The notes below the pieces were generated by a model. The model did no database searches, had not been told where the DNA came from, and worked only from the letters and a program-made list of their open reading frames with translations. Positions 27,484 to 58,422 of a DNA stretch of 64,000 nucleotides are shown piece after piece. This DNA is from a virus. Its lineage: Duplodnaviria; Caudoviricetes. Each line of letters begins with the position of its first letter. The first letter of the stretch is position 1. Both the position numbers and the translations under genes were made by a program. The stretch is from the IMG/VR virus record IMGVR_UViG_3300015214_000032, positions 6,280 to 70,279 of that record; one strand, given 5' to 3'.

Positions 27484-27730
27484 GGTAACCCCGGTAGCCC
27501 ATGGGTAACCCACGATCGAGACCCTGGGTACCGGTGAAAATGTCAATGTTAACAGAAACTTATAAGTGACGGTAACCTGTAACCCACGGCTACAGCTACA
27601 AATTTTTTATTTTTTTGCGAGGCCTCCGCGCCCGTAGGGTGTGGGTTACCGACGGTGAGCAACCCCTTGTTTTTGCAAAGGATTTGTCGGGTACCCAGGG
27701 TGGGTGTGGGGTGGGTTACCGGGGTTACCT
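27484..27730. repeat. Non-coding iteron-like element, copy A: convergent GGTAACC/GGTTACC arrays around a T-tract
   Basis: Multiple GG(G)TAACC units on the left, GGGTTACC units on the right, AATTTTTTATTTTTTT core at 27601-27616. Confidence 0.85.
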
Positions 27731-27975
27731 GTCAGCTGATTTTCAGTCGAGATCCCGGTGTTTTGATCGCTGTACATATTGCACGAGCTTTCCCCTGTCC
27801 CTGTAAAGCGGTATCAAGACGCCACCCCTTACGCGGGCGGGCCCGTGCTATACCTGGATTCAAGAAAAGTGCGATGAGCTCGCGTTTTCACTTGCATGGG
27901 ACTGCGCCAGTCGCATAGCGTTAAGCCCGTAACAGCGTCCCATAGCGTTAATCCGACTAATACAGGAACACAGCA

Positions 27976-28491
27976 ATGAATCCTCTCAACGATGCAGCTC
28001 GCCTCAAGGCGCTCGCGAAGCGCGCCAAGGAGAATCCGGACTCCTTCAAGTCCCGACCCAAGACTCGACGGTCAAGAACACCGATCGGGGATCCTTTTCA
28101 GGATCGAACGCTACGCTACCGCATGCCTGGCGAGCGCACAAGGGACATCACGGCATGCGCAGGTGCAGGGCTGGTTCAGGAGTGGAAGAAGAACTCCTGG
28201 GTCCTGTCCAATGTGCCCGGCGCACGTATCAGACTTCACGTGGAAGGGGACCTGTGCATCCTCACGCCCTACGATCCGCGCGACGTGCCTGCTGAGGAGG
28301 CGAAGAAGTATCACAATTATGCTTTGTCGCAGGTCAACGAGCGGCGTCAGGGCACCATCAGCATGACGTGGAATGCGCTGGGCCGCAAGCCCTCCCGTGC
28401 TCACACGGGGCTTCTCGACTTCAAACTGGTCGACGAGTGCCTCATGTTCTCCCTCAGCCAATTCGAGGAGATCGAAAATGGAGAAGAATAA
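27976..28491 (+). CDS. Hypothetical protein
   Basis: ACAGGAA RBS; first gene of rightward arm. Confidence 0.65.
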   Translation: MNPLNDAARLKALAKRAKENPDSFKSRPKTRRSRTPIGDPFQDRTLRYRMPGERTRDITACAGAGLVQEWKKNSWVLSNVPGARIRLHVEGDLCILTPYDPRDVPAEEAKKYHNYALSQVNERRQGTISMTWNALGRKPSRAHTGLLDFKLVDECLMFSLSQFEEIENGEE

Positions 28492-28897
28492 GTCGACGGA
28501 GTGGATCACCTACCGCTCCAAGGGTCCCGATGGTGCACGAACGATGTGCGCGCTCATGTTCAGCGTGCCCTTGCTTCAGATGATCGGCAATCCTGAGCGC
28601 TGTTCCATCGAGATCGATGCGCGGCAAGGGTCCCCCTGGAACATGTATATCAGACCCACGCCGTCCGGGTACAAGATCAACTTCAAACGACCGGGGTCCA
28701 TGGGCGAGCTCAATGTCTCCTGGAGCATCTTGGACGCGGCGCCCCGCGACGCAACGGGCAAGGGGCGCCTGCCCGTACGCGTGCAGCGAACGGACGACTT
28801 CGTGCAGTTGGTCGTCGACATCTCAACCTGGCGCGATAAACCGAAGCAGCAGGAGACGCTCTTCGGCGTCCAGGGTCGAGAATTGAAGCCCTCGTAA
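28478..28897 (+). CDS. Hypothetical protein
   Basis: GAGGAG RBS; coupled. Confidence 0.6.
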   Translation: MEKNKSTEWITYRSKGPDGARTMCALMFSVPLLQMIGNPERCSIEIDARQGSPWNMYIRPTPSGYKINFKRPGSMGELNVSWSILDAAPRDATGKGRLPVRVQRTDDFVQLVVDISTWRDKPKQQETLFGVQGRELKPS

Positions 28898-28924
28898 GGG
28901 GCTTCCTATACAGGAGAAAAAGGA

Positions 28925-29191
28925 ATGACGAAACACACGTGGTCGAAAGACCGTCCCCGCAAACCCGACATTGATCCAATGCTGGAGGATCTGTTGCCCC
29001 TGCTCAAGACGGATGGCAGATCAACCTATGCCAAGGCCAACGTGTCGGGGCTCAGTCCATCCACGCTCAAGAATTGGGAAATGGGACGCGTGCGCCGGCC
29101 CCAGTCCGTGAGCATTCAGATGGCCTACCGCATGCTGGGCTACGAGCTCAAGCCCGTGCCCGTTTCTGCACCGCTGCGCAAGAGCGCGTAA
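28925..29191 (+). CDS. XRE-type helix-turn-helix regulator
   Basis: A-x-x-SGLS-x-STLKNWE-x-G...RP...I...LGY pattern. Confidence 0.75.
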   Translation: MTKHTWSKDRPRKPDIDPMLEDLLPLLKTDGRSTYAKANVSGLSPSTLKNWEMGRVRRPQSVSIQMAYRMLGYELKPVPVSAPLRKSA

Positions 29192-29209
29192 ATTCGTATC
29201 CTGGCTCTG

Positions 29210-29245
29210 TTGACAACGGGGCCAGGATACCCTAGAACGGGTGCA
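29210..29245 (+). promoter_or_regulatory. Sigma70-type promoter
   Basis: TTGACA-N17-TAGAAC-N2-GTGCA, then AGACAGGAGA. Confidence 0.65.
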
Positions 29246-29264
29246 GAGACAGGAGAAAAGCCCA

Positions 29265-45717: not shown

Positions 45718-45726
45718 CGGGTTGTT

Positions 45727-45767
45727 AACTCCTTCGTCGTAGGTTGTTTCCATCAGACGAAGGAGTT
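45727..45767 (+). promoter_or_regulatory. 12-bp stem-loop sequestering the RBS of the next ORF
   Basis: AACTCCTTCGTC-N17-GACGAAGGAGTT; AAGGAG lies in the 3' arm, ATG at 45774. Confidence 0.6.
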
Positions 45768-45773
45768 CCGCAC

Positions 45774-45917
45774 ATGACCACGTACCTCGTTCACATTAAG
45801 CTCGGCGATAAGTCTCGTGACCTGTACGTTGAGGCTCACAACGAGTCGGAAGCGATTCACATCGCGCGTCAGCTGTCCTCCGCGTATGAGCGGCGTTGGG
45901 CCGCCTACGTGGTATAG
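45774..45917 (+). CDS. Hypothetical 47-aa protein
   Basis: AAGGAG RBS; MTTYLVHIKLGDKSRDLYVEAHNESEAIHIARQ... Confidence 0.6.
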   Translation: MTTYLVHIKLGDKSRDLYVEAHNESEAIHIARQLSSAYERRWAAYVV

Positions 45918-45921
45918 TCAG

Positions 45922-46050
45922 ATGCACCCACTTACGTCGGACTATCTGATAGAACTGGCACTCCTCGAAGCCTCCCGCATCCAAAGGGAAGCAATCGAGG
46001 CCAAGGAACTGCCAGACGAACTGCCACCCCATCCTGAAGAGGAAGACTGA
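45922..46050 (+). CDS. Hypothetical 42-aa protein
   Basis: Fills gap; acidic. Confidence 0.4.
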   Translation: MHPLTSDYLIELALLEASRIQREAIEAKELPDELPPHPEEED

Positions 46051-46051
46051 C

Positions 46052-46336
46052 ATGCTCAAGACCCTTGCCGCTCTCACCCTGATCCCCGCCGCGCTGTTCG
46101 TCGGCTGGCACGCAGATGTCGTCATCAACCCCGCGCTCAACGCCGCCCATTCCATCGTCGACAGCGCCTCCGGGTACTTCGCTGCCTACGATCCGGAAGC
46201 TGCGACCATGGAGTGCTTCGAGCGCATGGGCTTCCTCGCGCTCCAGGATGCAACCTGCTCGGAGCACGCTAAGGCCTGGCGCGCGATCAACCCCGATGCG
46301 CCCAAGCTGGTTCTTCAGCGACTCGCCGCCAAGTAA
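46052..46336 (+). CDS. Putative membrane-anchored/exported small protein
   Basis: Hydrophobic N-terminus, GAGGA RBS. Confidence 0.6.
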   Translation: MLKTLAALTLIPAALFVGWHADVVINPALNAAHSIVDSASGYFAAYDPEAATMECFERMGFLALQDATCSEHAKAWRAINPDAPKLVLQRLAAK

Positions 46337-46358
46337 CGCATCCTTATCCGATGGTGTA

Positions 46359-46380
46359 TAGCGCCCCGCAAGGGGCGCTA
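46359..46380. terminator. Stem-loop identical to the 18381 terminator stem
   Basis: TAGCGCCCC-GCAA-GGGGCGCTA. Confidence 0.7.
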
Positions 46381-46507
46381 TTCGTGACTCATATCGCCAA
46401 ACAAAGCACTTGTGGTATTTGTTTGCCACCCTAATATGCAGCCTAAGACAGGACGACAGCTTTCCGCTGACACCCGCGAAGTTTCGCGTCACTCGAAGGA
46501 GCACAAT

Positions 46508-46975
46508 ATGACCTACCGTTCCACGAAGACCTTTACTCATGAGTTGGGTCTGAGTGCAGCTTTTCGTCAGTGGCGCGCGGAATCGCACTGTCGCTATATC
46601 CACGGTTACGCCCTCAGCTTCAAGTTGACGTTCGAGGCGGATGAACTTGACGTGCGCAACTGGGTCGTCGACTTCGGTTCCCTCAAATCGTTCAAGAACA
46701 CGCTCGAATTCACGTTCGACCACAAGCTGTTGATCGCCGAGGACGACCCGGAGGTCGAACGTCTGATGGATCTGGACTATCACGGCCTTGCCCAGGTGCG
46801 CGTCCTGCCCAAGGTGGGATGCGAAGCGTTCGCCGAGTACGTGGCGGGCGCCCTGGACGTCTGGCTGCTGGATAATGGCTACGCGCCCCGCGTGCGCGTC
46901 GTGAGCGTGGAGTGCATGGAGCATGGAGCGAATTCCGCAATCTATGTGGTACCCACCGGAATTCAAGCGCTGTGA
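46508..46975 (+). CDS. queD: 6-carboxy-5,6,7,8-tetrahydropterin synthase
   Basis: SHC-x-x-IHGY, WVVDFG-x-LK, FDHK, E...NSA motifs. Confidence 0.92.
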   Translation: MTYRSTKTFTHELGLSAAFRQWRAESHCRYIHGYALSFKLTFEADELDVRNWVVDFGSLKSFKNTLEFTFDHKLLIAEDDPEVERLMDLDYHGLAQVRVLPKVGCEAFAEYVAGALDVWLLDNGYAPRVRVVSVECMEHGANSAIYVVPTGIQAL

Positions 46976-47111
46976 AGCGTGCGAGGGGAAAGACATCGAA
47001 ATCGGGATCCTTTGTGAAGGATGCGATTGCTGCCAGTCATGCTGCAATTGCTCATCAACTGACTGCGACTGTGCAGCGTGCATCGAAAGAAGAGAGAATG
47101 AAGCGCATTGA
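46923..47111 (+). CDS. Cys-rich (12 Cys) micro-protein
   Basis: CEAC...CEGCDCCQSCCNC...CDCAAC; spans the queD-folE gap. Confidence 0.6.
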   Translation: MERIPQSMWYPPEFKRCEACEGKDIEIGILCEGCDCCQSCCNCSSTDCDCAACIERRENEAH

Positions 47112-47685
47112 CAAGGACGGTGTCAAGTCAGCAATCCAGGTGCTCCTGGACAGCATCGGAGAGGACAGTGGACGAGAAGGACTTCAAGAAACCCCTGCCA
47201 GGGTTGCCAAGGCGTGGTGCGAATGGGCAAGCGGTTACGGCATCGATCCCGGGGACATCCTCAAAGTCTTTGAAGATGGCGCTGAAGGGGCGAACGAGCT
47301 TGTCATCGTTCACAACATCCCGGTTCATTCCAAGTGCGAACACCACCTCGCCGATATTACCGGCGTGGCTCACGTGGGATACATTCCGAACGGAAGGATC
47401 GTCGGTCTCAGCAAGTTGGCTCGCCTTGTGGAGGTGTTCAGTAGACGACTTCAAGTCCAGGAGCGCATGACGAACCAGATCGCTGACGCGCTTCAGGAGC
47501 ATCTGAAGCCCCTGGGTGTTGGCGTCCTCGTTCGAGCGTCGCATGGCTGCATGAGCACACGCGGCGTCAAGATCCACGGAAGCACGACCACCACAAGTGC
47601 GATGCGCGGCGCCCTACTCAAGGAAGCGAGCGCTCGAAACGAGTTCCTGACCCTGTGTCAGATGGCCGAGCGGGATGGAACATGA
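47098..47685 (+). CDS. folE: GTP cyclohydrolase I
   Basis: GL-x-ETP-x-RV, CEHHL, GLSKLAR, RRLQVQER, H-x-CM-x-x-RG. Confidence 0.96.
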   Translation: MKRIDKDGVKSAIQVLLDSIGEDSGREGLQETPARVAKAWCEWASGYGIDPGDILKVFEDGAEGANELVIVHNIPVHSKCEHHLADITGVAHVGYIPNGRIVGLSKLARLVEVFSRRLQVQERMTNQIADALQEHLKPLGVGVLVRASHGCMSTRGVKIHGSTTTTSAMRGALLKEASARNEFLTLCQMAERDGT

Positions 47686-47879
47686 GAGACTTCGCAACCA
47701 AGCTGGCACGATTGCGCATCGCCGCTGAGGGGCGTGGGAATCTTGAAAACAAGGGACGCATGCTCACAGACACATCGAACGGGGGTGTTGACCTTGTGTT
47801 CGTGAGGGTTGCAGACCTGCGCCAGCTCCTGTACCATTTCGATAGGCTTGACACGGAATCGAGGGACGGCCATGTATAG
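47682..47879 (+). CDS. Hypothetical protein
   Basis: ATGA coupling to folE. Confidence 0.5.
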   Translation: MRDFATKLARLRIAAEGRGNLENKGRMLTDTSNGGVDLVFVRVADLRQLLYHFDRLDTESRDGHV

Positions 47880-48174
47880 GCCACTGCGAGCTGAAACGAT
47901 CCAGGCGATGAACGAGGGACTCGTGCTCCTGTTCCGCTGGCTTCGTCCGGGAGGGATGAACCGATACGCTGCGCGAACGCACCCTTGCGATCCGTTTATG
48001 GACCAGCAGTATGTGCCCATCTCGAAGAAACCCGGCGTATGGGCCGTGCTCGTTCGCCTGTTCACGCTTGGGGCATACGGCCGAACATGGGCGTGGGTGG
48101 ACCTACCGCCGGGCACATGGATCCCCGAGCATGTCAATTGTCGATGCACGATTATCGAGAAGGATAAGGGATGA
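47872..48174 (+). CDS. Hypothetical protein
   Basis: Coupled; ends PEHVNCRCTII. Confidence 0.5.
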   Translation: MYRPLRAETIQAMNEGLVLLFRWLRPGGMNRYAARTHPCDPFMDQQYVPISKKPGVWAVLVRLFTLGAYGRTWAWVDLPPGTWIPEHVNCRCTIIEKDKG

Positions 48175-49091
48175 AGGTCTACCTGGCGGGCGAGACGCCC
48201 ATGAGCAAGGATGAGGGATGGGGCCGGGATGTCGAAGGATGGCAGACGGGCGCGCTCGCAGGAGTGATCAAGCGCCGACTGTACTCGTTCTACTACCACA
48301 ACAAGATCGACAGGGAAGTGCAGGCATCGCTGGACAGTGGCCACGAGCTGTTCCTCGACTCAGGTGCTTTCTCCGCACACACCCAGGGGAAGACGATCAC
48401 CATCGACGACTATGCCAAGTTCATCCACGCGAATGGCATGCACTTTTCGGTCAAAGCGAACCTCGATGATATCGGTGACACGGGACCCAAGTCGTGGGAG
48501 AACTGGCAAGAGCTCAAGCGCCAGGGTTGCGACGTCTTCCCTGTCCATCACGCGGCTGACGAGGATCGATTCTTGCTCAAGATCCTGGACGAGCTGGAAC
48601 CCGATACTGGCTTCATGGCGCTGGGCGGTCTTGTTGGCGCCAGCCGATCCGTGCTCCGTTCCTGGCTTGACTACATCTGGGCCAAGTTTCTCGTCAAGGA
48701 GGACGGGACGCCCCGCGTGCGCGTCCACGGCTTTGGCTTGACGGACACGGAGCTCATGCTCCGGTACCCGTGGTACAGTGTCGACTCCTCGTCCTGGGTC
48801 ATGACGGGCATCTTCGGTGGCTGCATCTTCCGGGAAGGGGGTACCTTCTACAAGGTGCAGTTCAGCGACGAGAGCCCCGACAAGTACAACGTGAACAGTT
48901 GGCACTATGACCGCCTTACGCCGCCGCAGCGTGCACGCGTGGACCAGTGGCTTGCGCGCATGGGCGTAACCGCCGAGCAATTGGCAAGCCACTACAGCTT
49001 TCGGCATCTCGTCAACGCGCGCACCTTCACGGAGATCGAGGAAATGGAGACGGTGCCCACGTTCAAGCTGGTACAGGAGACTTTGTTCTGA
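48171..49091 (+). CDS. dpdA: DNA 7-deazaguanine transglycosylase (phage DpdA, TGT-fold)
   Basis: FLDSGAFS, ANLD-x-IGD, PV-x-H, ALGGLV, VHGFG, SVDSSSW motifs, in que/folE context. Confidence 0.88.
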   Translation: MKVYLAGETPMSKDEGWGRDVEGWQTGALAGVIKRRLYSFYYHNKIDREVQASLDSGHELFLDSGAFSAHTQGKTITIDDYAKFIHANGMHFSVKANLDDIGDTGPKSWENWQELKRQGCDVFPVHHAADEDRFLLKILDELEPDTGFMALGGLVGASRSVLRSWLDYIWAKFLVKEDGTPRVRVHGFGLTDTELMLRYPWYSVDSSSWVMTGIFGGCIFREGGTFYKVQFSDESPDKYNVNSWHYDRLTPPQRARVDQWLARMGVTAEQLASHYSFRHLVNARTFTEIEEMETVPTFKLVQETLF

Positions 49092-49279
49092 TGAGCAAAG
49101 TGGATAGGCTGACGCGCTACTTCATTCGGGGCTTCACCCTGGGTGCCCTTGGTGGTGCAATTGTGATGATCCCTTACCTCCTGTTCGTCGGTAGCATCCA
49201 CTTCAGCAGCTTCCTTGTGGGCATCGTGTTCGTTGCTGTCATCAAAGGGATCGAGGAGGGGTTGGGATGGAAGTCCTGA
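49091..49279 (+). CDS. Small two-TM membrane protein
   Basis: Hydrophobicity pattern. Confidence 0.55.
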   Translation: MSKVDRLTRYFIRGFTLGALGGAIVMIPYLLFVGSIHFSSFLVGIVFVAVIKGIEEGLGWKS

Positions 49280-49500
49280 CGACCAAAGAACGGCGAGCCG
49301 ACATTATCCAGCGTCTTGAGAGCGGTGGCTATTACGGCGGATACATCCTCGCGCGCTTCTACGGCGTGAGTGAGCGCACCATTCGCCGCGACATGGCGCT
49401 GCTGCGCAAGAAGGGTCATCCAATCAGACTTGGTACGTCCAGCGGATATGTGATGCGCCCCAAGCCTCGCAGCGAGCATGAGAGGGACAAACTCAGATGA
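49267..49500 (+). CDS. HTH (DeoR/HTH_11-type) DNA-binding protein
   Basis: LARFYGVSERTIRRDM-x-x-L-x-x-x-G-x-PI. Confidence 0.8.
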   Translation: MEVLTTKERRADIIQRLESGGYYGGYILARFYGVSERTIRRDMALLRKKGHPIRLGTSSGYVMRPKPRSEHERDKLR

Positions 49501-49760
49501 ACGATATCTCAAAGAGCTACCCGTATCTGAGCATCTCGAAGAAGTACGATGCGGATTATAGTGACGTGCTGCTCGCCGTGCAGCGCGTTACGCGGGGCCT
49601 TGCGTCGCAATGGCAGGACGCGCCCAAGGATGACGAGGCACATGCGATCATGCGCCTTGTTGACTTCCACCCACAGGCGGCAGCAATTGAGAGGGACATA
49701 ATGGCGGCTGCGGAACGCTTCTTGCGCATCCAAAATGGGGACCTTGACTGGAATGAGTAA
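49497..49760 (+). CDS. Hypothetical protein
   Basis: ATGA coupling. Confidence 0.55.
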   Translation: MNDISKSYPYLSISKKYDADYSDVLLAVQRVTRGLASQWQDAPKDDEAHAIMRLVDFHPQAAAIERDIMAAAERFLRIQNGDLDWNE

Positions 49761-50190
49761 CGCGCGTACATACGAGGATGCATTCAACCTCCTGTGCGGG
49801 AGGAAGATTGGCGCGGGTATCCATCGTGACGTGTTTGAGTGCTCCCTGGATCCAACGCTCGTCGTCAAGGTGGAGATCGACGATGATCGCATGCGCAACT
49901 TCGCCAACGTCAAGGAATATGGAAACTGGACCGTGTGGCGTGATGTTGAGCCCATCGCGCGCTGGCTTGCCCCCTGCGATCGATTGTCCTTTGATGGTCG
50001 CATCCTGCTCCAGAAGCGTGTCGAGCCCATCAAGAAGTCGGAAGCACCGACAGCGCTGCCGACCTTTCTGACCGACGTCAAGTATGACAATTATGGTTGG
50101 TATGACGGGCGCATCGTGTGCATTGACTATGCGTTCCTCGTCACAGATGCTTCAGCCAAGAAGCGCAGCGTCAAGGAGTTGTGGTGGTGA
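49753..50190 (+). CDS. Minimal protein-kinase-like protein
   Basis: IG-x-G-x-x-R-x-VF, VVK, N-x-x-E, D-x-K-x-x-N-x-G and IDY motifs. Confidence 0.7.
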   Translation: MSNARTYEDAFNLLCGRKIGAGIHRDVFECSLDPTLVVKVEIDDDRMRNFANVKEYGNWTVWRDVEPIARWLAPCDRLSFDGRILLQKRVEPIKKSEAPTALPTFLTDVKYDNYGWYDGRIVCIDYAFLVTDASAKKRSVKELWW

Positions 50191-50708
50191 CAAAGCTGCC
50201 TGAGAAATGGAGCTTCGGTCCCTTGCGCTTCCGCCGTTTCTATGGCAGCAATGCCAATGGGGACTGGACGCCCTACCTGAGCAAGATGACATTACGTATT
50301 GGGCGCTGGAGCATCGGCGTTCACAAGTTTCATCGGGGCGATGCAGATCCTGATTGCCACGACCACCCCTTTGACTTCTGGACTCTACCTCTGACGACAT
50401 ACGTTGAGGAAGTCCTGGACTGGCAGGGGCTCGCTCACGGTGGAACGCACCTGTATCCATCCTACACCAAGCGCCTGAACGTGGTCAAAGCGTTCCGCGT
50501 GCACTATCGACCTGCTTCCTACGCTCACAGGGTGCTCTACCGCAAAGGTTACCCGCCTATCGCGAAGCGCTGCATCTGGACCATCGTGCTCAAGCGCAGC
50601 ATTGAGCGGGAATGGGGCTTCCTCAAGCAACGGGATGGTCGCTGGTGCTGGCAGGCATGGGACGACTACATCAATCAAGGAGGCAAGGATGTCGGTTGTA
50701 ACGAATAG
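50181..50708 (+). CDS. Cupin-like metal-binding protein
   Basis: H-x-F-x-x-x-D-x-D-x-x-x-HDHPF-x-F...Y-x-E...R-x-A-x-x-x-HRV...WTIV. Confidence 0.6.
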   Translation: MVVTKLPEKWSFGPLRFRRFYGSNANGDWTPYLSKMTLRIGRWSIGVHKFHRGDADPDCHDHPFDFWTLPLTTYVEEVLDWQGLAHGGTHLYPSYTKRLNVVKAFRVHYRPASYAHRVLYRKGYPPIAKRCIWTIVLKRSIEREWGFLKQRDGRWCWQAWDDYINQGGKDVGCNE

Positions 50709-50931
50709 GCGCCAATTCCCCGTTCTCCAGAAGCTGGAGGAAACTGTCGCGGGACGATGGCGACACGTCAAGCGGGGTACGACATACACCGTCCGAGGTG
50801 TGGTGCAGCTCCAGTGCGCCGTTCCTGAGCTTGACGGCGTCTACGCCGTGCTCTATGTCAGTGAGGGAGATGGGCGCGAATGGGTTCGCCCCGTGGAAGA
50901 GTTCCTTGACGGACGCTTTGAGAGGATATAA
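50689..50931 (+). CDS. DUF1653-like protein
   Basis: G-x-WRH-x-K-x-G-x-x-Y-x-V...V-x-Y...WVRP-x-x-EF-x-x-x-RF. Confidence 0.7.
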   Translation: MSVVTNRRQFPVLQKLEETVAGRWRHVKRGTTYTVRGVVQLQCAVPELDGVYAVLYVSEGDGREWVRPVEEFLDGRFERI

Positions 50932-51911
50932 TGAAGAAAGAAATCGATTGGCTGACCGACGCGCTCAGCACCAAGAACATCGCGCGGGAAATGACTCACT
51001 ATCGCGTGGGCGGCAGGGAGATCAAAGCCACGGATGGGCGCATCACAGCAGGGCACCCGTGGCCCACGGAAGACCAGTATCTGGTACCGGGCACGGAATT
51101 CGAGAAGATCGTCCGCAGGATGCCCGGCGACCCGCGCGTGGAAGTTGAGAAGGACCACATTAAGGTCGTGAGCGGCCGGTCCAGGGGCGCAATCCGCACT
51201 ATGCCTCTTGAGCAATGGGATTACCCTGGCGTCGACACAAACGCCTGGACGGACCTCCCCGAAGGGCTTATCGGCGCACTGCGGGCCCTGCGCCCCTTTG
51301 TCAGCGATAACGCCACACACGCATGGTCGCTTGGCGTAGCGCTCGATGATGGGTGGGCCTACGCCACCAACAACATCGTGCTGGCGGGCGTGCGCTTGCC
51401 CTCGCTTGACGGCAGGGAATCGCAGTCCATTGTCCCCGTCTGGGCGATCGACTTCATCGTGGACAGGGCGGAGGACCTTGTCGAGTGGGCCTGGACGGAA
51501 TACTACATCGGGTTTCGATGGAAGAATGGCGCTTGGATGCGCAGCCAGCTTATCGAGGGTACGTTCCATGAGCGTGCGTCGGAGATGATCCGGAACGTGG
51601 ACGCCATGGAACTGCCCCAACCCATCACGAAAGAGTTCAAGAGCACGTTCGCACGTGCCGCCCCCCTTGTGCCAGCTGGCAGTGCGATCAAGATCGCCCG
51701 CACATGGTTGCGTGGCGCGTTCGGCGAGGCACAGTTCGAGGAAGGGGTGGAGGTGGAGACGCTCGACGATGCAGCACCCACCTCCTGGACCGCAAACCGC
51801 CTCGCTCCTGTGATCGAAATCGCTTCCGCGTGGGAACCAGCAACCTGGCCCAAGCCCACACCCTTCCAGGGTGAAGGGATCTGCGGCATCGTCCTTGGGA
51901 GGAACGAATGA
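50931..51911 (+). CDS. DNA polymerase III beta-clamp (DnaN)-like protein
   Basis: 326 aa with repeated clamp-like elements (ATDGR-x-x-A, I-x-V-x-SG-x-S, GV-x-L...ATN). Confidence 0.7.
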   Translation: MKKEIDWLTDALSTKNIAREMTHYRVGGREIKATDGRITAGHPWPTEDQYLVPGTEFEKIVRRMPGDPRVEVEKDHIKVVSGRSRGAIRTMPLEQWDYPGVDTNAWTDLPEGLIGALRALRPFVSDNATHAWSLGVALDDGWAYATNNIVLAGVRLPSLDGRESQSIVPVWAIDFIVDRAEDLVEWAWTEYYIGFRWKNGAWMRSQLIEGTFHERASEMIRNVDAMELPQPITKEFKSTFARAAPLVPAGSAIKIARTWLRGAFGEAQFEEGVEVETLDDAAPTSWTANRLAPVIEIASAWEPATWPKPTPFQGEGICGIVLGRNE

Positions 51912-52177
51912 AGGACAAGGAAATTACTATCAGCATCATCGACAAGCGCGGCGCGCTGCCACTGTTCCGCAACACGTTGTCGGTCATGATTATGTGCCTA
52001 CCGATCTACATCGGTGTTGTGGTTGGTAGTTCTGCGATGCAGTGGGCGGGGTTTGTGCTTGGCATCCTTTTGTTCTTCGTCATGATCATGGAGTTCAACA
52101 GGAACTTGCCCCGCTTCCATGACATCGATGGCGCGATCCAGTACCTGAAGCACATGAAGGAAGACGAGTCACACTGA
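51908..52177 (+). CDS. Two-TM membrane protein
   Basis: Hydrophobic segments. Confidence 0.6.
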   Translation: MKDKEITISIIDKRGALPLFRNTLSVMIMCLPIYIGVVVGSSAMQWAGFVLGILLFFVMIMEFNRNLPRFHDIDGAIQYLKHMKEDESH

Positions 52178-52178
52178 C

Positions 52179-52430
52179 ATGGAACACGGCGTCATTCTCC
52201 ACACCACCAGAACTCTTGGCAAGAGCCAAGGGTACTTTGGTCTGAGCATCAGGGACGTGCTGCTGCCCGACGACAACGGCAAGCCAACCTATCAAGCGAT
52301 GCAGAGCGCGTGGTTTCCTACCCCGAAGGAGATCGAAGCGCTGATCAGCGGCGCGCCCATCATTCTCACGGTGCTTGGCACTGCGCATCCGCCCGTGCGC
52401 ATGGAAGTTGGTGCGGAGCCCAAGGAATGA
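52179..52430 (+). CDS. Hypothetical protein
   Basis: W-x-PTP-x-E-x-x-x-L-x-x-G...HPPV motif common in phage proteins. Confidence 0.65.
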   Translation: MEHGVILHTTRTLGKSQGYFGLSIRDVLLPDDNGKPTYQAMQSAWFPTPKEIEALISGAPIILTVLGTAHPPVRMEVGAEPKE

Positions 52431-52603
52431 TCACCTGGGCGAAGAGAGTGCACAATCTGACGCAAGCGCTGGGCCGAAGGCCCACGCTTGAGGAGTTGCT
52501 ACTCCTCGCGCCCTTGCATAATATGACGGAGGAGGAGCTCAAAGCGCAGCAGGAATCCTTCGTCCGAGCGATGAAACCCACTGGCGACCCGAGGTTCGAT
52601 TAA
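52427..52603 (+). CDS. Hypothetical protein
   Basis: ATGA coupling; MT-x-EE-x-x-AQ-x-ESF. Confidence 0.55.
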   Translation: MITWAKRVHNLTQALGRRPTLEELLLLAPLHNMTEEELKAQQESFVRAMKPTGDPRFD

Positions 52604-52607
52604 TATC

Positions 52608-53348
52608 ATGTTCGGCAAAAATCCCGTACTCAAGCAGGACCTATCGACCTCCCGCGAACTCAAGGTCGTCAAGGGATCCCCGTTCTTTACCATCCAGGGG
52701 GAAGGGCCCTACATTGGGCATCCCGCCGTGTTCGTGCGCCTGCATGGCTGCAATCTTCGTTGCTGGTTCTGTGACACTGAATTCAGCAACCCGGACGATC
52801 CCGTGATGCACATCGTTGAGCTTGCGCGCAAGGTCTACGATATGAAAGCGATCGACGGGCACAAGTTCAACCTCGTTGTCATCACGGGTGGCGAGCCCTT
52901 GCGGCAGAACATTCTGCCTTTCTGCAAGCTGCTCCTGGACCAAGGATTCACAGTGCAGATCGAAACTGCGGGCAGCCTGTGGGTCGAGGGGCTGGATGAG
53001 CTGCTGGGCCCCCGTTACGGGCACCGCTTTGCAATCATCTGTTCGCCCAAGACGCCTACGATCCATGAGAAGATCTATCGTCATGCGACCGCGTTCAAGT
53101 ACGTGATTGGCAGTGAGACGCGGGTCGATGAGAACGGTATGGTGCTGGGCAACACGCAGAAGGAGGACGGACCCATTCGTCCCCTTGCTGCGCCGCGCGT
53201 TGGCGCGCCCGTCTACCTGTCCCCGATGGATGAATATGATGACAAGCGCAACGAATCGAATCGTCAGCGCGTTGCGAGCCTATGTCTGACGCATGGGTAT
53301 ATCGCAGGTGTTCAGATGCACAAGCTGATGCAGATACAGGAGCCATAA
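52608..53348 (+). CDS. queE: 7-carboxy-7-deazaguanine synthase (radical SAM)
   Basis: F-x-TIQGEG-x-x-x-G-x-PAVFVRL-x-GCNLRC-x-FCDT, VITGGEP, ET-x-G, CSPK, Q-x-HK. Confidence 0.95.
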   Translation: MFGKNPVLKQDLSTSRELKVVKGSPFFTIQGEGPYIGHPAVFVRLHGCNLRCWFCDTEFSNPDDPVMHIVELARKVYDMKAIDGHKFNLVVITGGEPLRQNILPFCKLLLDQGFTVQIETAGSLWVEGLDELLGPRYGHRFAIICSPKTPTIHEKIYRHATAFKYVIGSETRVDENGMVLGNTQKEDGPIRPLAAPRVGAPVYLSPMDEYDDKRNESNRQRVASLCLTHGYIAGVQMHKLMQIQEP

Positions 53349-53793: not shown

Positions 53794-55880
53794 TGGCTCG
53801 TGACGACTTCTATGGCATGTTCTGGCAGGATGCGCAGCGACAACGCGCGACAAAGGGGCCCAGCGGCCCACGCGCCCTCCCTCCTACACCGGACACGGGT
53901 TGGTTCCTCCCCGAGGGGCCGGAACTCTACCCCGACCTAAGCGGACAGGGGATGATCTCCTTCGACGTTGAGTCGAATGACCCATACCTGACGTCGAAAG
54001 GTCCTGGATATGTGCGTGGCGACGCATATGTCTGCGGTGTCGCTATCGGAACTGAAGCAGGGTTTCGACGCTACTACCCTGTGGCGCACGAGAACTCCGG
54101 ACGCAACTTGAGCAAGCGAGCCGTGTTCGGTTGGCTCAAGGAAGTTCTCGACCTACCCGTGCCCAAGGTTGGTGCCAACCTTCTGTACGACTTGGAGGCG
54201 CTCCACTTCTCCGGCGTCCCCGTGCGCGGCCCCTTCTATGATGTCCAGAATGCGGAGGCGCTGCTGGACGAAACGCGCTTCACCTACTCACTTGAGTCAA
54301 TCGCTCAGGATCGCTTGCGGGAAGGCAAGGAACAAAGCGTGATGCTCAAGTGGCTTGAGCAAGCGTTCGGGAAGGGCGAGACCAACATCAAGAAGAACAT
54401 CTGGCGCGCTCCGCCTGAAGTGGTTGGCCCGTACGCTGAGAGCGACGTTGACCTGCCCCTGCGCCTGCTTGCTCTTCAACGTAAGCAGCTCGAGCAGGAA
54501 AATCTATGGGAGTTGTTCGAGCTTGAGAGCAAGCTCGTTCCCATGCTCCTCGCAATGCGGATCCGCGGCGTTCCCGTTGACATCAAGCACACGGAGAAGC
54601 TCCTCGCGCGCCTGGATCAGACGTACAACGATTCGATCGATCACATCACCCAGCAAGTTGGTATTAAGCCTGACATCTGGGCAGCTGACTCGCTCGCCAA
54701 GATCTTCGACAGCGTGGGTATTGAATATCCGCGCACGCCCAAGACCGGCGCGCCCAGCTTCAGGAAGGAATGGCTTGAGCACCAGAACCATCCTGTAGCG
54801 AACATGATCAAAGAAGCGCGGAACATGGACAAGTTCCGCGGTACGTTCGTCAAGGGATATATCCTTGAGGGCCACGTTAACGGCCGCATCCACACCCAGT
54901 TCCACCAACTTCGTTCTGACAAGGGTGGAACGGTGAGCGGGCGTTTCAGCTCGTCGTCCCCCAATCTCCAGAACATTCCGACGCGCACGGCGGAAGGAAA
55001 ACTGATTCGCGAAGCGTTCATCGCGGAGAAGGATCAGACGTGGTGGTCGCTTGACTGGTCGCAGATCGAGTACCGCTTGATTGTGCACTATGCGGCATTG
55101 TTGAGGCTGGAGGGCATCCAGCCCATTGTTGACTCCTACTGGAACGACCCGAATGTCGATTACCACATGGAGGTCGCGAAGCTCACGGGGCTGAGCAGAA
55201 GCGATGCCAAGAACTTGAACTTCGGCCTTGCCTATGGGCAGGGCGTGGACCTCCTGTGTGCCAACCTAGGAGTCGACAGGGAGACGGGTGAGCGCATTAT
55301 GGCGGAGTACCACGCCAAAGCGCCCTTCATCCGCTTGTTGGCCAACGCTGCGAGCAGCAGGGCAGATCAAAACGGGTTCATCACGACACTCCTAGGTCGT
55401 CGCCGCCGCTTCAACACCTGGGAGAAGTCCAGGGGCAGCGAGTTCCTCAGTGAAACCAATCTTGGGATGTTTAAGCACGCGCTTGACGGCACCAACAATT
55501 CGCGCACGCTGCGCATTCTACGGGAAGTGCCAGAGGACGAGCGGACGCCCGACAATCCCGATTACCTGCGCGCGCTGCGCACGGATGGATATCGACGGTA
55601 CAAGCTGCACAAGGCGCTCAACGCGCTGATCCAGGGGTCCGCCGCTGACATCATGAAGAAAGCGATGGTGATGATTTGGGAGAGTGGCGTCTGCGACGTG
55701 ATCGGCGCCCCTCACCTGACGGTGCACGATGAGCTTGATGGCAGTTATATTGAAGGTGACCCGAGACATGAGGAAGCGCTTGCGGAAGTGAAGCACATCA
55801 TGGAGAATTGCCATACGTTCAAGATCCCTATCCGAGCGGATGGCGAGACGGGGGCGAATTGGGGGGCAGCCAAGGGATGA
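53793..55880 (+). CDS. polA: Family A DNA polymerase with 3'-5' exonuclease
   Basis: FDVES (exo I), GRFSSSSPNLQNIP, D-x-SQIEYR (A), AK-x-x-NFG-x-x-YG (B), N-x-x-IQGSAAD and TVHDEL (C). Confidence 0.96.
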   Translation: MARDDFYGMFWQDAQRQRATKGPSGPRALPPTPDTGWFLPEGPELYPDLSGQGMISFDVESNDPYLTSKGPGYVRGDAYVCGVAIGTEAGFRRYYPVAHENSGRNLSKRAVFGWLKEVLDLPVPKVGANLLYDLEALHFSGVPVRGPFYDVQNAEALLDETRFTYSLESIAQDRLREGKEQSVMLKWLEQAFGKGETNIKKNIWRAPPEVVGPYAESDVDLPLRLLALQRKQLEQENLWELFELESKLVPMLLAMRIRGVPVDIKHTEKLLARLDQTYNDSIDHITQQVGIKPDIWAADSLAKIFDSVGIEYPRTPKTGAPSFRKEWLEHQNHPVANMIKEARNMDKFRGTFVKGYILEGHVNGRIHTQFHQLRSDKGGTVSGRFSSSSPNLQNIPTRTAEGKLIREAFIAEKDQTWWSLDWSQIEYRLIVHYAALLRLEGIQPIVDSYWNDPNVDYHMEVAKLTGLSRSDAKNLNFGLAYGQGVDLLCANLGVDRETGERIMAEYHAKAPFIRLLANAASSRADQNGFITTLLGRRRRFNTWEKSRGSEFLSETNLGMFKHALDGTNNSRTLRILREVPEDERTPDNPDYLRALRTDGYRRYKLHKALNALIQGSAADIMKKAMVMIWESGVCDVIGAPHLTVHDELDGSYIEGDPRHEEALAEVKHIMENCHTFKIPIRADGETGANWGAAKG

Positions 55881-56011: not shown

Positions 56012-56025
56012 GGGGAAACAATCAG

Positions 56026-56226: not shown

Positions 56227-56274
56227 TTTACGCGGGCGCTCGTGCAACAGTACGAGCTTAGACAGGAGAGACAG

Positions 56275-56583
56275 ATGACAGTCGTGGGGCGCGATAAGTA
56301 TGGCGAGGACATGCTCCCCTGCTATCGATACAGGTACAGCGCCTGCCCACGCTGCAAGGCACGGACGGAAGAGCAAGCAGGTGTGATGTGCCGCCCCGTG
56401 CAGACACCATGTGGTGAGTATGAGTGTCCTGGTGACACGGGATGCTTAAACCCATTTGGCGTGAAATGGACATCAGATGGACGTGCTTGCGAATTGACGA
56501 ACGCGAGCGCACAACAGGAAGCAAGGAAGTTTGACGAATGGGTACGGGAACAGATTCAATCCCAAGAAATGAAGCGTGGCTGA
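56275..56583 (+). CDS. Hypothetical Cys-rich protein
   Basis: AGACAGGAGA RBS; CPRC...C...C...C. Confidence 0.6.
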   Translation: MTVVGRDKYGEDMLPCYRYRYSACPRCKARTEEQAGVMCRPVQTPCGEYECPGDTGCLNPFGVKWTSDGRACELTNASAQQEARKFDEWVREQIQSQEMKRG

Positions 56584-56879
56584 TCAAGAAGGACAACTAT
56601 TTCTACCGTCCCGATTGCTCAGGGTACACGCGCTATGTGTTCGCGGCGGGTCGATACACAGAACAGTTCGCGAAGTCCCTTGAGACGCGTTCTGATGCCA
56701 GCCACAGTATCCGCGCCATCAGGCTGACTGACATCAAGCTGAGCGAGATGGATGAGGCGGACAGATACGTGCACAAGCTGACCAGCGAGCTTGAAGTAGC
56801 GTTGAACACGATCGCTATGCAGGAGCGGAACATACAGAGCTTGCGTCTCCTGTTCGCCGGCAATGGAGCGCGCAAATGA
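56538..56879 (+). CDS. Hypothetical protein
   Basis: WLIKK-x-x-YFYRP-x-x-x-GYT...AGRYT pattern. Confidence 0.6.
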   Translation: MGTGTDSIPRNEAWLIKKDNYFYRPDCSGYTRYVFAAGRYTEQFAKSLETRSDASHSIRAIRLTDIKLSEMDEADRYVHKLTSELEVALNTIAMQERNIQSLRLLFAGNGARK

Positions 56880-57358
56880 AGCGTCGATCATTCCTTGGGT
56901 TCCTTGGAGGAGCGGCCGTTGCAGGCCCGAGCGCCGCGAAGCAATCGCTAGGGGACGCGCAACTGAAGCACATGGGCTTTCCGCACGGTACGGGGGCGCT
57001 CGTAAGCTCCAAAGCGGAGACCGATTCAGCAGCAATGGCGCTGGAAGTAGCAACCAGCAAACCCACCATGGGCAGGCTGAAGAGCTTCGTGGCTTGGATC
57101 CGCAAGCGCGGGGTGCCCGACTTCCAGATGGGTGAGATACAAGCGGTGATGCAGCAGATGAAGTCGGATGGTCTCGATGCCGACCTTGCCGTGCTTGTGA
57201 GCATGTCCCCTGTCAACAAGGCGCGCATCCAGCGCGCTCGCAATTATGATAGGGCGCTCGACAGGATGCTGATGCGCGTTGTGTCATCAAAAGCGAGGGA
57301 AGAGTTCAACGCTGAGGTACAGAAGAAGTTCGGGTTTGAGCCCAACTGGTGGTACTGA
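56876..57358 (+). CDS. Hypothetical protein with twin-arginine-like N-terminus
   Basis: MKRRSFLGFLGGAAVAGPSAA. Confidence 0.6.
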   Translation: MKRRSFLGFLGGAAVAGPSAAKQSLGDAQLKHMGFPHGTGALVSSKAETDSAAMALEVATSKPTMGRLKSFVAWIRKRGVPDFQMGEIQAVMQQMKSDGLDADLAVLVSMSPVNKARIQRARNYDRALDRMLMRVVSSKAREEFNAEVQKKFGFEPNWWY

Positions 57359-57377
57359 AATAAGGTGGAGAAGTGCT

Positions 57378-57716
57378 ATGACTGATGGAATGGTTGAAGC
57401 TGTTGTTGACAAGCGTGGGCCGATCGAGCGCATGTCCAGTGAGTACGATGATCTCTCTGCTGCGCTCAAGTTCGTGCGCAACGCTGAGGGGCGGGAGATC
57501 AGCGCGCGCGTTGCGCTCGTGACGCTGAGCAAGAAGGACAGCTCGGGCCGCAACGACGACGTGCCCTACGAGGCCGACAACATGTTCCGGGACATGATAC
57601 AGGGTGACATTGACCAGCATCTAGCGACGCTGGAGAAGCGTATCCTGGCACAGATGGGTGCCGTTCGGCGTGAAATCGTTCGTCTGATGGAGAAGGAGGA
57701 GGGTGAAAAGCGATGA
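57378..57716 (+). CDS. Hypothetical protein
   Basis: GGAGA RBS. Confidence 0.55.
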   Translation: MTDGMVEAVVDKRGPIERMSSEYDDLSAALKFVRNAEGREISARVALVTLSKKDSSGRNDDVPYEADNMFRDMIQGDIDQHLATLEKRILAQMGAVRREIVRLMEKEEGEKR

Positions 57717-58039
57717 AAATCTCGTATCGTGACGTCCCATATAGGCGTGTTGATCGCGTTTTCAAGGCTGCCGGGGGCTACACTGTCTCAGCTTTCGGGA
57801 CGAGTATCTCGAAAGATTCGGTGTCCGTCCAGGGGTGGCAACGCATGATGGAGCGAATTGCACCCGCGATGCAGGACGGCAAGCATATCGTGAATGTCAC
57901 GTTGAGGCGGGTTCCTTTGAATGGAAATGTCGCGAAGACGGGAGACATTTATGATGTGCTTGATGTCGATGTTCGGGAGTGCGAGGGGGATGAGGGAACG
58001 AAAGTTATTGTGCCACCCGACGTGCTTGCTAAGCTGTAA
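57713..58039 (+). CDS. Hypothetical protein
   Basis: GGAGG RBS; ATGA-coupled; last gene before repeat copy B. Confidence 0.55.
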   Translation: MKISYRDVPYRRVDRVFKAAGGYTVSAFGTSISKDSVSVQGWQRMMERIAPAMQDGKHIVNVTLRRVPLNGNVAKTGDIYDVLDVDVRECEGDEGTKVIVPPDVLAKL

Positions 58040-58073
58040 GTATAGAGAAAAAGCAGCAATTTCAGCAGCTTAT

Positions 58074-58422
58074 GTAACCCCGGTAACCCACGGCCGCTTT
58101 CGTGGGCTACCCAAAATCCTTAACAAAAACAAGCACTTATCACCCGCGGTAGCCCCGGGTAACCCATGCTTTTTGCTATGGGTGCGGGAGATTTTTCGCC
58201 GTGAATTTCGCTTTTGTTCCAATGGGTTAAGTGAACTTGCACGGTTCTTGCTACGCGCGGGCGCGTTATACCCCTGCGCCCGTGTCGAAATTAAAAAAAA
58301 AAATTTGTAGCTGTAGCCGTGGGTGTGGGGTTACCGTCGCTTGTAAGTTGTTGAATATATGGGCATTTTCACCGGTACCCACGGTCCCTTTCGTGGGCTA
58401 CCCATGGGTTACCGGGGTTACC
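58074..58422. repeat. Non-coding iteron-like element, copy B (inverted homologue of 27484-27730)
   Basis: GTAACCCCGGTAACCCAC on the left, A11 tract at 58293-58303, GGGTTACCGGGGTTACC on the right. Confidence 0.85.

Follow-up and report, generated by a model that had tools for sequence, protein, structure and literature searches.

Twin inverted non-coding elements at the ends of a 30-kb phage operon: two copies of a putative cis-acting module, possibly an origin of replication and a second binding site

Two non-coding regions of a tailed-phage genome, 30.7 kb apart and at either end of a 30-kb early/middle operon, resemble each other in inverted orientation. An earlier note on this DNA (a 64,000-nt stretch of a 70,279-bp record, hereafter the window) had proposed that the segment between them might flip, or alternatively that the pair might represent two origins or a link between replication and packaging. 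What such a pair is for, and why its members face opposite ways, is the question considered here; the support for every reading of the twin elements is computational throughout.

The inverted homology of the two regions is real, as repeat finder, self-BLAST and gapped alignment all indicated. The repeat finder paired the arms 27484-27613 and 58293-58422 (130 nt, 84% complementary) and, just outside them, an exact inverted pair (20/20) at 27460-27479 and 58486-58505. Self-BLAST within the genome gave the match with E 3e-33, and gapped alignment stretched the homology to 27445-27743 (element A) against the reverse complement of 58518-58049 (element B). When the A region was compared with the whole 70,279-bp record, it matched only itself and B (E 8e-36). 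Relative to A, element B has two insertions: one of about 60 nt pushes the 20-mer box and the left arm apart, and the other, of about 100 nt, lies beside the core. No perfect match between the copies exceeds 27 nt, and they differ by indels as well. Five matching blocks had been listed before: four were found exactly as described (27/27, 18/18, 30/32 and 18/18), while the fifth agrees at only 11 of 20 positions as then given and seems to be shifted by one base. Misassembly is an unlikely source of the pair, because 620 nt of the A region are identical in three independent samples, with identical flanking genes, and the relative L185 (87% in TerL) has the same B junction. At the level of sequence comparison, A and B can be considered as demonstrated to be two copies of one putative cis-acting module.

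Element A separates the divergent SNF2-helicase operon from the 30-kb early/middle operon (evidence for each feature in brackets):

25649..27355, minus strand: SNF2-family helicase, which opens the leftward operon (Pfam SNF2-rel_dom; 568-aa gene call, other assemblies)
27383..27412, minus strand: sigma-70-like promoter of the SNF2 operon, TTGTGA-N17-GATAGT (six-phage alignment)
27445..27743, no strand: element A, compact copy (gapped alignment with B; repeat pairs)
27460..27479, minus strand: 20-mer box, GCTCTGTCGCCGCGTGTGGC in the direction of SNF2, whose ATG follows after about 105 nt (20/20 identity to 58486-58505)
27484..27590, plus strand: left arm of A, with GGTAACC 27484, GGTAGCC 27493, GGTAACC 27504, GGGTACC 27526 and GGTAACC 27571 (motif map; 18-mer at outer end)
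27582..27640, no strand: core of A, in the order 27-nt block identical in B, T6 and T7 runs (27603-27616), GC-rich box (A/T-run search of genome; block check)
27644..27729, minus strand: right arm of A, mirror image of the left arm, with GGTTACC 27644, GGGTACC 27689, GGTTACC 27714 and GGTTACC 27723 (repeat pair, motif map, 18-mer)

Element B lies at the early/late boundary:

57713..58039, plus strand: final gene of the early/middle operon, immediately ahead of B (ORF; 41% homologue at the same place in L185)
58049..58518, no strand: element B, expanded copy, inverted relative to A (repeat finder, BLAST, alignment)
58073..58165, plus strand: right arm of B, with GTAACC 58074, GGTAACC 58082, GGCTACC 58105, GGTAGCC 58148 and GGTAACC 58158 (motif map; 18-mer)
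58166..58245, no strand: B-specific insert, right arm to core (alignment with A; relatives)
58246..58324, no strand: core of B, with a GC-rich inverted repeat, an A11 run at 58293-58303 and the 27-nt block identical to A (A/T-run search; block check; folding)
58329..58422, minus strand: left arm of B, with GGTTACC 58329, GGTACC 58374, GGCTACC 58396, GGTTACC 58407 and GGTTACC 58416 (motif map; 18-mer)
58423..58485, plus strand: B-specific insert with four TGACAG repeats (alignment with A; partly conserved in L185)
58486..58505, plus strand: 20-mer box, with the nuclease ATG 60 nt downstream
58565..61249, plus strand: outgoing late operon nuclease-terS-terL (PHROGs, TerL matches, TerS alignment)
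58565-58966, plus strand: VRR-NUC-like nuclease (PHROGs)
59005-59685, plus strand: terS (TerS alignment)
59768-61249, plus strand: terL (TerL matches)

Each element has two inward-facing arms around a core in which an A/T run adjoins a GC-rich box, and carries 9-11 motif copies, 4-5 per arm (GGTAACC or TGGGTWACC), partly spaced by one helical turn. GGTAACC/GGTTACC occurs 13 times in 70 kb, and 11 of these occurrences are within A and B. The 18-mer GGTAACCCCGGTARCCCA is present four times in the window (0.03 expected), facing inwards at both ends of both elements, and the 20-mer box has two matches where 0.01 would be expected by chance. Runs of A/T of at least 6 nt are found in the 70-kb genome only in the two cores, which are also its two most AT-rich 20-mers. 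The core tract measures 14-17 nt, which is short for an unwinding element, and in windows of 50-100 nt other regions are equally unstable. A cluster of repeated short sites, as expected of an iteron-type origin, is present in both elements; no DnaA-box or IHF consensus was noticed in them on reading by eye. The GC skew showed no shift at B; it does shift at A, but the genes switch strand there too, which confounds the signal.

The proposal that recombination between A and B flips 27.7-58 kb, so that the genome exists as two isomers, is largely refuted, and we hold it to be extremely unlikely. The copies are indeed inverted, with 130 nt at 84%, an inverted isomer would keep a workable gene layout, and a viable inversion mutant of SPP1 exists (PMC6316719). 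However, the orientation is constant in all the relatives and independent assemblies examined, one of the outcomes that the earlier note itself had listed as counting against the flip. All five contigs with an identical helicase have the same neighbours (three of them, from three samples, were retrieved and are those with the identical A region), and gene order and strands, compared in five relatives and L185, are the same throughout, with no inverted order. No invertase, integrase or recombinase family was present among the about 75 non-structural ORFs scanned, and the 27-nt maximum identity of copies diverged with indels makes frequent exchange unlikely. In cyanophage Pam3 and roseophage R5C, moreover, analogous twins at the same two positions are direct, and exchange between them would split the genome.

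The opposite orientation of A and B can be accounted for more simply. Both copies have the same polarity towards their outgoing operon, which is the SNF2 helicase leftward and nuclease-terS-terL rightward, and the same holds in four of the four relatives in which both sites are readable; in Pam3 and R5C, where the copies are direct, the flanking genes are co-directional. The inversion thus only follows operon direction, the copies being inverted in the genome because their operons run opposite ways. Since the relatives keep the same layout, the elements resemble a pair of docking sites for a single phage protein rather than a flip-switch.

The same two positions are filled in six related phages, Pam3 and R5C by elements of unrelated sequence. 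The heptamers of five phages, counted as copies in A + copies in B (copies in the rest of the DNA examined), were the following:

this phage: GGTAACC, 6+5 (2)
relative L175/L180: GGTCTTA, 5+5 (0)
relative L177/L182: GGGACTA, 7+7 (1)
relative L178/L183: CTATCCC, 4+5 (1)
relative L179/L184: AATATCG, 6+3 (0)

Two minor cross-matches aside, a top heptamer is mostly confined to one phage, and GGTAACC is shared only with the closest relative, L185. A heptamer shared between two distant sites, as in an SPP1-type dual origin, is therefore found in five phages. Other traits are kept: an A/T run stands beside a GC-rich box in 11 of 11 elements inspected by eye, A is compact in six of six phages, B is interrupted in all five in which it could be read, and a box like the 20-mer was judged by eye to lie at the equivalent position in relatives. 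Because the private heptamer is common to both copies and nearly absent elsewhere, one phage-encoded, sequence-specific DNA-binding protein very probably occupies both copies and co-evolves with its sites. Rapid switching of specificity is typical of initiator/iteron pairs.

The layout of the relatives also bears on whether the pair might be selfish or relic DNA, either a MITE-like element bounded by 18-bp terminal inverted repeats or a functionless duplication in decay. Inward-facing 18-mers do bound each copy, and there are only two copies, which have diverged; but no target-site duplication was seen at the element ends, the homology continues past the inverted ends, the positions are fixed in the six related phages, Pam3 and R5C although the sequences are unrelated, and the motif has changed in parallel in both copies. 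In addition, the 18-mer is absent from IMG/VR and its metagenome matches are at chance level only. We give this explanation hardly any credence.

Three early proteins encoded beside or near A are candidate readers of the arm motif:

27976-28491, plus strand: early gene, 171 aa (beside A)
28478-28897, plus strand: early gene, 139 aa (homologues beside A in three of five relatives)
28925-29191, plus strand: XRE-like HTH gene, 88 aa (weak Pfam match, E 0.13; 1.2 kb from A)

No Rep/O/gp38-like initiator family was found among the scanned ORFs. The replication genes comprise an AEP primase, two UvrD-like helicases, the SNF2 helicase and PolA, and a gp38/DnaB-loader system is absent. Candidate initiators are the unannotated early proteins, two small HTH proteins and the C-terminus of the AEP primase.

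Our leading, though tentative, reading is that A may be an iteron-type replication origin and B a second initiator-binding site, as in SPP1 oriL/oriR; it takes up the note's alternative of two origins or a packaging link. The motifs of A would act as iterons and the A/T run as the opening site. A would be the origin: it is compact in all six phages, has divergent early promoters on either side and adjoins the helicase gene. B, at the early/late boundary, would be a second initiator site comparable to SPP1 oriR or P4 crr, one where binding would count more than geometry, and it may serve as a fork barrier, a looping partner or a secondary origin beside the packaging genes. That A is compact and B interrupted suits a single working origin accompanied by a site that is only bound. 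No operon leaves on the side of B's right arm here, yet this arm is nearly identical in L185 and is the best-kept part of the element, which would point to selection on the whole module and not only on a promoter-proximal operator. The concentration of motifs, the inward-facing arms, the unique A/T cores and the parallel heptamer switching agree with an origin as well. On the other hand, no twin was seen in the distant phages Pan1, HTVC027P, 023Pt and DSL-LC04, which share the SNF2 helicase and other replication genes; and the operon-linked polarity, the placement of the 20-mer box and the gene inside B fit transcription control at least as well.

A close rival is a shared transcription-control platform, in which an early phage DNA-binding protein would sit on both arm sets and coordinate the two outgoing operons, for example by turning the divergent early promoters at A off and the promoter-poor late operon at B on, acting at a distance or by looping; we regard it as somewhat less likely than the origin reading. 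The polarity just mentioned suits it, as does the 20-mer box: it precedes the opening gene of either operon by 60-105 nt, and in L180/L182 it travels with terS and not with the arms. Scanning revealed no sigma-70-like promoter that would serve the late operon, which may therefore need an activator. A small HTH_17/AlpA-like gene, absent here, occupies the position of the right-arm-to-core insert of B in three relatives, and R5C has an XRE-like gene (read from sequence) beside its copy. The leftward operon contains DNA-processing genes (HNH, Topo VI-A-like by the Pam3 annotation, SNF2) that could sensibly share regulation with packaging. Finally, the best fold match of the 139-aa protein is MraZ/B3-like, and MraZ, a small oligomeric beta-barrel DNA-binding protein, binds a series of direct heptamer repeats (PMC8475190); but this match is weak (Z 5.9, 13% identity, model pLDDT 71), lies below the tool's own noise guidance, and Foldseek returned no match. 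Other observations also speak against transcription control. The SNF2 promoter, whose pattern is unique in the window and was matched by the scan in this phage and three of five relatives, is conserved and lies outside the twin homology, about 70 nt from the nearest arm motif, so that the arms neither overlap nor abut it as lambda OL/OR would; this absence of overlap favours an origin. No consensus promoter was found in A and B by pattern scan, nor was one recognised in the conserved core (own copies scanned, relatives by eye), and the conserved right arm of B has no neighbouring promoter in this phage. Moreover, 9-11 sites per element exceed typical operators, and fast specificity switching is unusual among transcription factors of lytic phages.

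The position of B, directly upstream of nuclease-terS-terL, is the usual place of cos/pac, and motif clusters flank a central site in P1 pac and lambda cosB, as they do here. The arms could accordingly be packaging sites read by TerS, with A as a second copy. This is improbable: L180 and L183 have unrelated arm motifs but TerS N-termini that are about 87% identical (counted on the alignment), so that site specificity does not follow the DNA-binding domain of TerS. A second site beside a helicase gene would have no obvious use, and it is A, not B, that is the compact and better-kept copy.

Little can be said for RNA-level elements comparable to lambda nutL/nutR or HK022 put, in which arm palindromes would form leader hairpins of both operons; we think this scarcely credible. 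Polarity tracks the operons, and the arms do contain inverted pairs such as GGTAACCCACG-N8-CGTGGGTACC. However, folding energies are unexceptional (z -0.3 to -1.8, one arm +1.2), many motif copies are direct repeats unable to pair, an Rfam search gave no match, and the arms would not be in the SNF2 transcript, since its promoter is downstream of them.

Several known systems resemble the twin elements in part. Mu G/Gin, P1 C/Cin and Salmonella Hin use 26-34-bp crossover sites with an adjacent serine invertase, and both orientations occur in populations; inverted repeats bracket a segment there as here, but no crossover sites, serine invertase or second orientation were seen in this phage. The short-repeat arrays, together with the weak fold match, recall MraZ, which however works at one promoter. 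Lambda OL/PL and OR/PR (with nutL/nutR) are homologous, inverted for divergent operons and read by one phage-specific protein whose specificity varies among relatives; they consist of three 17-bp palindromes overlapping promoters, 2.4 kb apart, in a temperate phage. The likeness lies in homologous control regions inverted because they serve divergent operons; the difference, in the 9-11 short motifs clear of a recognisable promoter in a phage in which no repressor or lysogeny genes were found. In P1 (incC/incA), F and R6K, two clusters of the same repeats are bound by one Rep and act as origin and control or pairing site; these clusters of 17-22-bp direct repeats share with A and B the use of the same short repeats twice, but flank the rep gene within about 2 kb. 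In P4, ori and crr contain octamer iterons in both orientations at two loci 4.5 kb apart flanking the alpha gene; the alpha primase-helicase binds both, and both are needed in cis. Short repeats in both orientations at two loci are found here too, although 30.7 kb apart at module boundaries and with a primase of AEP type without a demonstrated DNA-binding domain.

No standard feature class had been thought to explain such a pair, but this was wrong. In the lytic siphovirus SPP1, gp38 binds two sites far from each other, oriL and oriR, which share their repeats and each have an AT-rich unwinding element; oriR, in a late-gene intergenic region, has been proposed as a place where forks stall (PMC6316719). 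The SPP1 repeats are direct, oriL is inside the initiator gene and replication uses a gp38/DnaB-loader system, whereas the present phage has inverted arms, two intergenic sites and the replication proteins listed above. What the two phages have in common is a pair of distant, similarly organised sites, the second of them by the late genes, for which binding by one shared protein is predicted in the present case.

The IMG/VR record, of which the window covers bases 6280-70279, is linear, measures 70,279 bp and has no terminal repeat. Its two ends (window 63349-64000 and genome 1-243) split a coiled-coil, scaffold-like gene, whose reading frames do not join. Because this gene is cut by both record ends, the genome is nearly complete and otherwise circularly closed in the assembly, with a short piece seemingly missing at the assembly break. 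The main genes are arranged as follows (window positions).

To about 18.4 kb, rightward: virion and lysis genes
18530-27355, minus strand: leftward operon with SNF2 helicase, DUF2786, HNH nuclease and a Topo VI-A-like gene
27976-58039, plus strand: early/middle operon with two UvrD-like helicases, Pam3 gp32/33/34-like proteins, AEP primase, ThyX, 7-deazaguanine genes and PolA
44278-45717, in the 7-deazaguanine set (44278-53348): Gat-QueC fusion
52608-53348, in the same set: radical-SAM QueE-like gene
After the early/middle operon, rightward: nuclease-terS-terL-portal genes

Element A occupies the divergent gap at 27.4-27.9 kb, and element B the 525 nt that separate the early from the late genes. 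Pfam matches to FolE, QueD and QueF-like families were also present among the ORFs of the early/middle arm, at the level of the arm rather than of individual ORFs. At 2701-3224, a virion gene contains collagen-like Gly-X-Y repeats with a 9-nt period, and is probably a tail fibre gene. A promoter-like element occurs twice, at 17780-17870 and 42250-42337, preceding the genes at 17873 and 42338; it is composed of TTGACA or TTGATG, about 17 nt containing TATCAT, and then GTGCATAGG(G)CGCTGC, and both copies probably represent one class of host-type promoter.

The inverted homology between A and B described in an earlier note was confirmed: 130 nt of A match the reverse complement of B at 84%, an exact 20-mer (the 20-mer box, 27460-27479 in A and 58486-58505 in B) lies immediately outside this stretch, and the two elements are the sole such pair in the genome (BLAST E 8e-36; self-BLAST E 3e-33). 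Four of the five matching blocks listed in that note proved exact, whereas the fifth matches at 11 of 20 positions where it had been placed, and is apparently one base out of register. In a gapped alignment, the homology spans 27445-27743 in A and 58049-58518 in B, with two insertions in B. In B, the left arm is separated from the 20-mer box by a B-specific insert (58423-58485) in which TGACAG occurs four times, once as part of a perfect TTGACA; these repeats are partly kept in L185, a relative with an 87% TerL, and have no counterpart in A.

Each element contains 9-11 GGTAACC-type motifs, arranged in two mirror-image arms that flank a core. The 18-mer GGTAACCCCGGTARCCCA faces inward at the bounds of each element (4 matches against 0.03 expected), and 11 of the 13 copies of GGTAACC/GGTTACC in 70 kb fall inside A and B. 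The outer arm sites begin about 1, 10 and 21 nt from the outer end of the arm, i.e. about one helical turn apart, and some arm sites form inverted pairs over an 8-nt spacer of variable sequence. The cores of A and B hold the only runs of A or T of at least 6 nt in the genome, together with its two most AT-rich 20-mers, and in each core a GC-rich box adjoins the A/T run. No consensus sigma-70 promoter, intrinsic terminator, Rfam family or tRNA was found in the A or B regions. When the arms were considered as single strands, their folding and hairpin stability were not unusual, which favours their interpretation as putative duplex protein-binding sites rather than as RNA or hairpin elements.

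A DNA search with the A region against GenBank phages gave no match, IMG/VR protein-pattern scans (SNF2, PolA and the gp34-like protein) did not find close relatives, and the IMG/VR relatives identified through TerL do not share the replication module. The GGTAACCCCGGTARCCCA 18-mer is absent from IMG/VR; its 54 metagenome matches have nothing else in common with the phage. Near relatives were found in a large protein collection, and a search for homologues of the nuclease returned three proteins only. The layout of a divergent SNF2 gene, a 480-770-nt gap, and small genes with UvrD recurs in five phages whose helicase identity is 62-69% (L175-L179, the A-side loci), and their packaging regions were located via TerL (L180-L184, the B-side loci). 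In one relative, SIS, CTP_transf_3 (KdsB-like) and DAHP_synth_1 (KdsA-like) genes are inserted after SNF2 (L176:4200-6312), and nucleotidyltransferase and phosphomannomutase genes lie between terS and terL (L181:1064-2436). A 320-aa AcrVA2-like protein (Pfam PF26125; L179:194-1156) is encoded by an early gene beside element A of one relative.

The 20-mer-box side of A lies towards the SNF2 operon, and that of B towards nuclease-terS-terL. A and B each hold the same polarity relative to the outgoing operon, and the copies are inverted because the SNF2 and packaging operons run opposite ways. In the three relative records containing both genes, SNF2 is encoded on the minus and TerL on the plus strand, as in the window; when SNF2 and TerL were both set plus, all A-to-B matches were plus/plus in the four readable pairs. 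Therefore, twin layout, polarity and genome orientation are conserved among the relatives. In addition, the neighbours were unchanged in five helicase-identical contigs, and the three of these that were retrieved (from three samples) had the same 620-nt A region as the window. Samples containing the phage are SRR6484323, ERR5005182 and ERZ23499309, besides the IMG/VR source. The earlier note had suggested that the 27.7-58 kb segment might be invertible. The orientation is conserved, a result that the same note regarded as speaking against inversion, no invertase or integrase was found in about 75 scanned non-structural ORFs, and the idea of a flip switch should be dropped.

Twins were also present in two cultured phages. 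Cyanophage Pam3 (ON014755.1), which has in common with our phage SNF2, gp32-34, the Topo VI-A-like gene, HNH and PolA, and whose annotated genes are all on one strand, contains a 225-nt direct repeat (92%) at 21850-22073 and 54201-54423, i.e. about 70 nt upstream of SNF2 and directly ahead of terS. Four TGCAGTTCYCC motifs per copy form inverted pairs around an AT-rich core. In roseophage R5C (KY606587.1), a 71-nt direct repeat (82%) at 5003-5070 and 45053-45121 sits in the gaps before the ThyX-SNF2 genes and before the operon leading to TerL. The direct orientation of these twins supports a polarity tied to the outgoing operons.

The arm motif differs from phage to phage. Each phage has a private arm heptamer, present in similar counts in both elements and nearly absent elsewhere in the DNA examined.

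Arm heptamers of our phage and five-phage set of relatives, where listed (phage or loci; heptamer; copies in A + B; copies in the rest)
Our phage; GGTAACC; 6 + 5; 2 in 68.6 kb
L175/L180; GGTCTTA; 5 + 5; 0
L177/L182; GGGACTA; 7 + 7; 1
L178/L183; CTATCCC; 4 + 5; 1
L179/L184; AATATCG; 6 + 3; 0

There is little sharing of top heptamers between phages: that of our phage recurs in L185, and beyond this there are only two minor cross-matches. In contrast, an A/T run with an adjoining GC-rich box was recognized by eye in 11 of 11 elements, and a box similar to the 20-mer box, again as judged by eye, occupies the equivalent position in the relatives. The simplest reading of private arms around a common core is that a conserved factor would act on the core, while a predicted phage-specific DNA-binding protein, one per phage, very probably reads the arms of both A and B and co-evolves with them.

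As to the identity of this reader, the SNF2 helicase was rejected, its N-terminus being conserved equally with the rest of the protein. TerS is probably not the reader either, considering that the TerS N-termini of L180 and L183 are about 87% identical while their arm motifs are unrelated. In three relatives, a small HTH_17/AlpA-like gene (45-52% mutual identity) is nested in B, where it separates the right arm from the core:

L180:507-755, HTH_17/AlpA-like gene
L182:556-846, HTH_17/AlpA-like gene
L183:916-1167, HTH_17/AlpA-like gene

At the same position, L184 has a 22-codon ORF (near 1370-1440), which may be a remnant of this gene, and our phage and L185 have merely a 100-nt insert. No AlpA-like counterpart was found in our genome, the single weak tblastn match being outside any real ORF, and the brief resemblance near 58225-58245 does not suffice to claim a remnant of the HTH gene in our insert. 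Since the gene is missing from our phage and from L185, its product is not a universal reader. This leaves as candidates the early proteins encoded next to A, among them those of 171 and 139 aa, an 88-aa XRE-like protein, the C-terminus of the AEP primase, and a winged-helix protein of 77 aa (HTH_11/DeoR-like, E 4e-10), encoded midway along the early/middle operon at 49267-49500, which may be a regulator or the reader. Homologues of the 139-aa protein lie beside A in three relatives. Its predicted fold best matched MraZ (Z 5.9) and then plant B3 DNA-binding domains (Z about 3.5), values below the noise guidance of the tool, and Foldseek found no match for the model; the possible MraZ/B3-like fold is thus a lead only. 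In the ESM Atlas, two early proteins gave only viral clusters without names.

Concerning function, a sigma-70-like promoter upstream of SNF2 (TTGYGA-N16/17-TTTACT or GATAGT) is conserved in a six-phage alignment; a scan with its pattern gave a single match in our window and also matched three of the five relatives. This promoter is outside the twin homology, with some 70 nt between it and the closest arm motif, and no repeat of it was found before the late operon, so that the twin is not just a duplicated promoter.

We tentatively consider A and B as a replication origin plus a partner site, a reading in which our confidence is somewhat short of even. It is suggested by the many short sites in both orientations around an A/T run, by the switching of arm specificity between phages, and by the location of A between divergent promoters and next to a helicase gene. 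Moreover, A is compact in all six phages, whereas B is interrupted in five of five, and the right arm of B is conserved even though no operon departs there. A precedent is offered by SPP1, in which oriL and oriR are both bound by gp38, and oriR, located in the late region, has been proposed to stall forks (PMC6316719). That the elements are instead a platform for transcription control is an only slightly less likely alternative, consistent with several observations: the polarity is fixed to the outgoing operons, the box moves with the first gene (terS in L180/L182), the late operon has no recognizable promoter, relatives and R5C have regulator-like genes within the elements or next to them, and in B an entire gene is tolerated between an arm and the core. 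The probability left by these two is shared by packaging, RNA-level, selfish-relic and inversion readings.

A further reading, which is rather unlikely, would make A and B a conserved two-site switch that couples replication to packaging. One fast-evolving protein would fire the compact A beside the helicase gene and, at the expanded B upstream of the nuclease-terminase genes, would stall or redirect forks or pair with A, turning circle replication into the production of concatemers where packaging begins; this design, its polarity fixed to the operons that leave the elements, would be common to an uncultured clade, Pam3 and R5C.

The finding is solid and testable, and of moderate interest. 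Next to nothing is known of replication origins and regulatory circuits in this phage group, which combines PolA, AEP primase and SNF2 helicase and takes in cyanophages, roseophages and phages with 7-deazaguanine genes. The twins provide a precise handle that can be tested, with two sites per genome, a private motif per phage and few candidate readers. That the motif has changed in parallel at both sites amounts to a natural experiment in protein-DNA co-evolution, which could reveal the reader by co-variation alone when complete genomes of the relatives are compared. Because Pam3 and R5C are cultured and have twins at the same two positions, the question of origin versus regulator is accessible at the bench.

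The twin elements are not mentioned in the R5C and Pan1-Pan5 papers. We have not seen described a conserved pair of sites whose polarity is coupled to the helicase and packaging operons, a parallel motif turnover at both sites across an uncultured clade, or the twin design in Pam3 and R5C, and all three are apparently undescribed. In P4, ori and crr are paired iteron-like sites; sites of this kind are already known also from SPP1 and iteron plasmids, as are inverted homologous control regions from lambda. Judged by these precedents, the A/B twin does not represent a new kind of feature.
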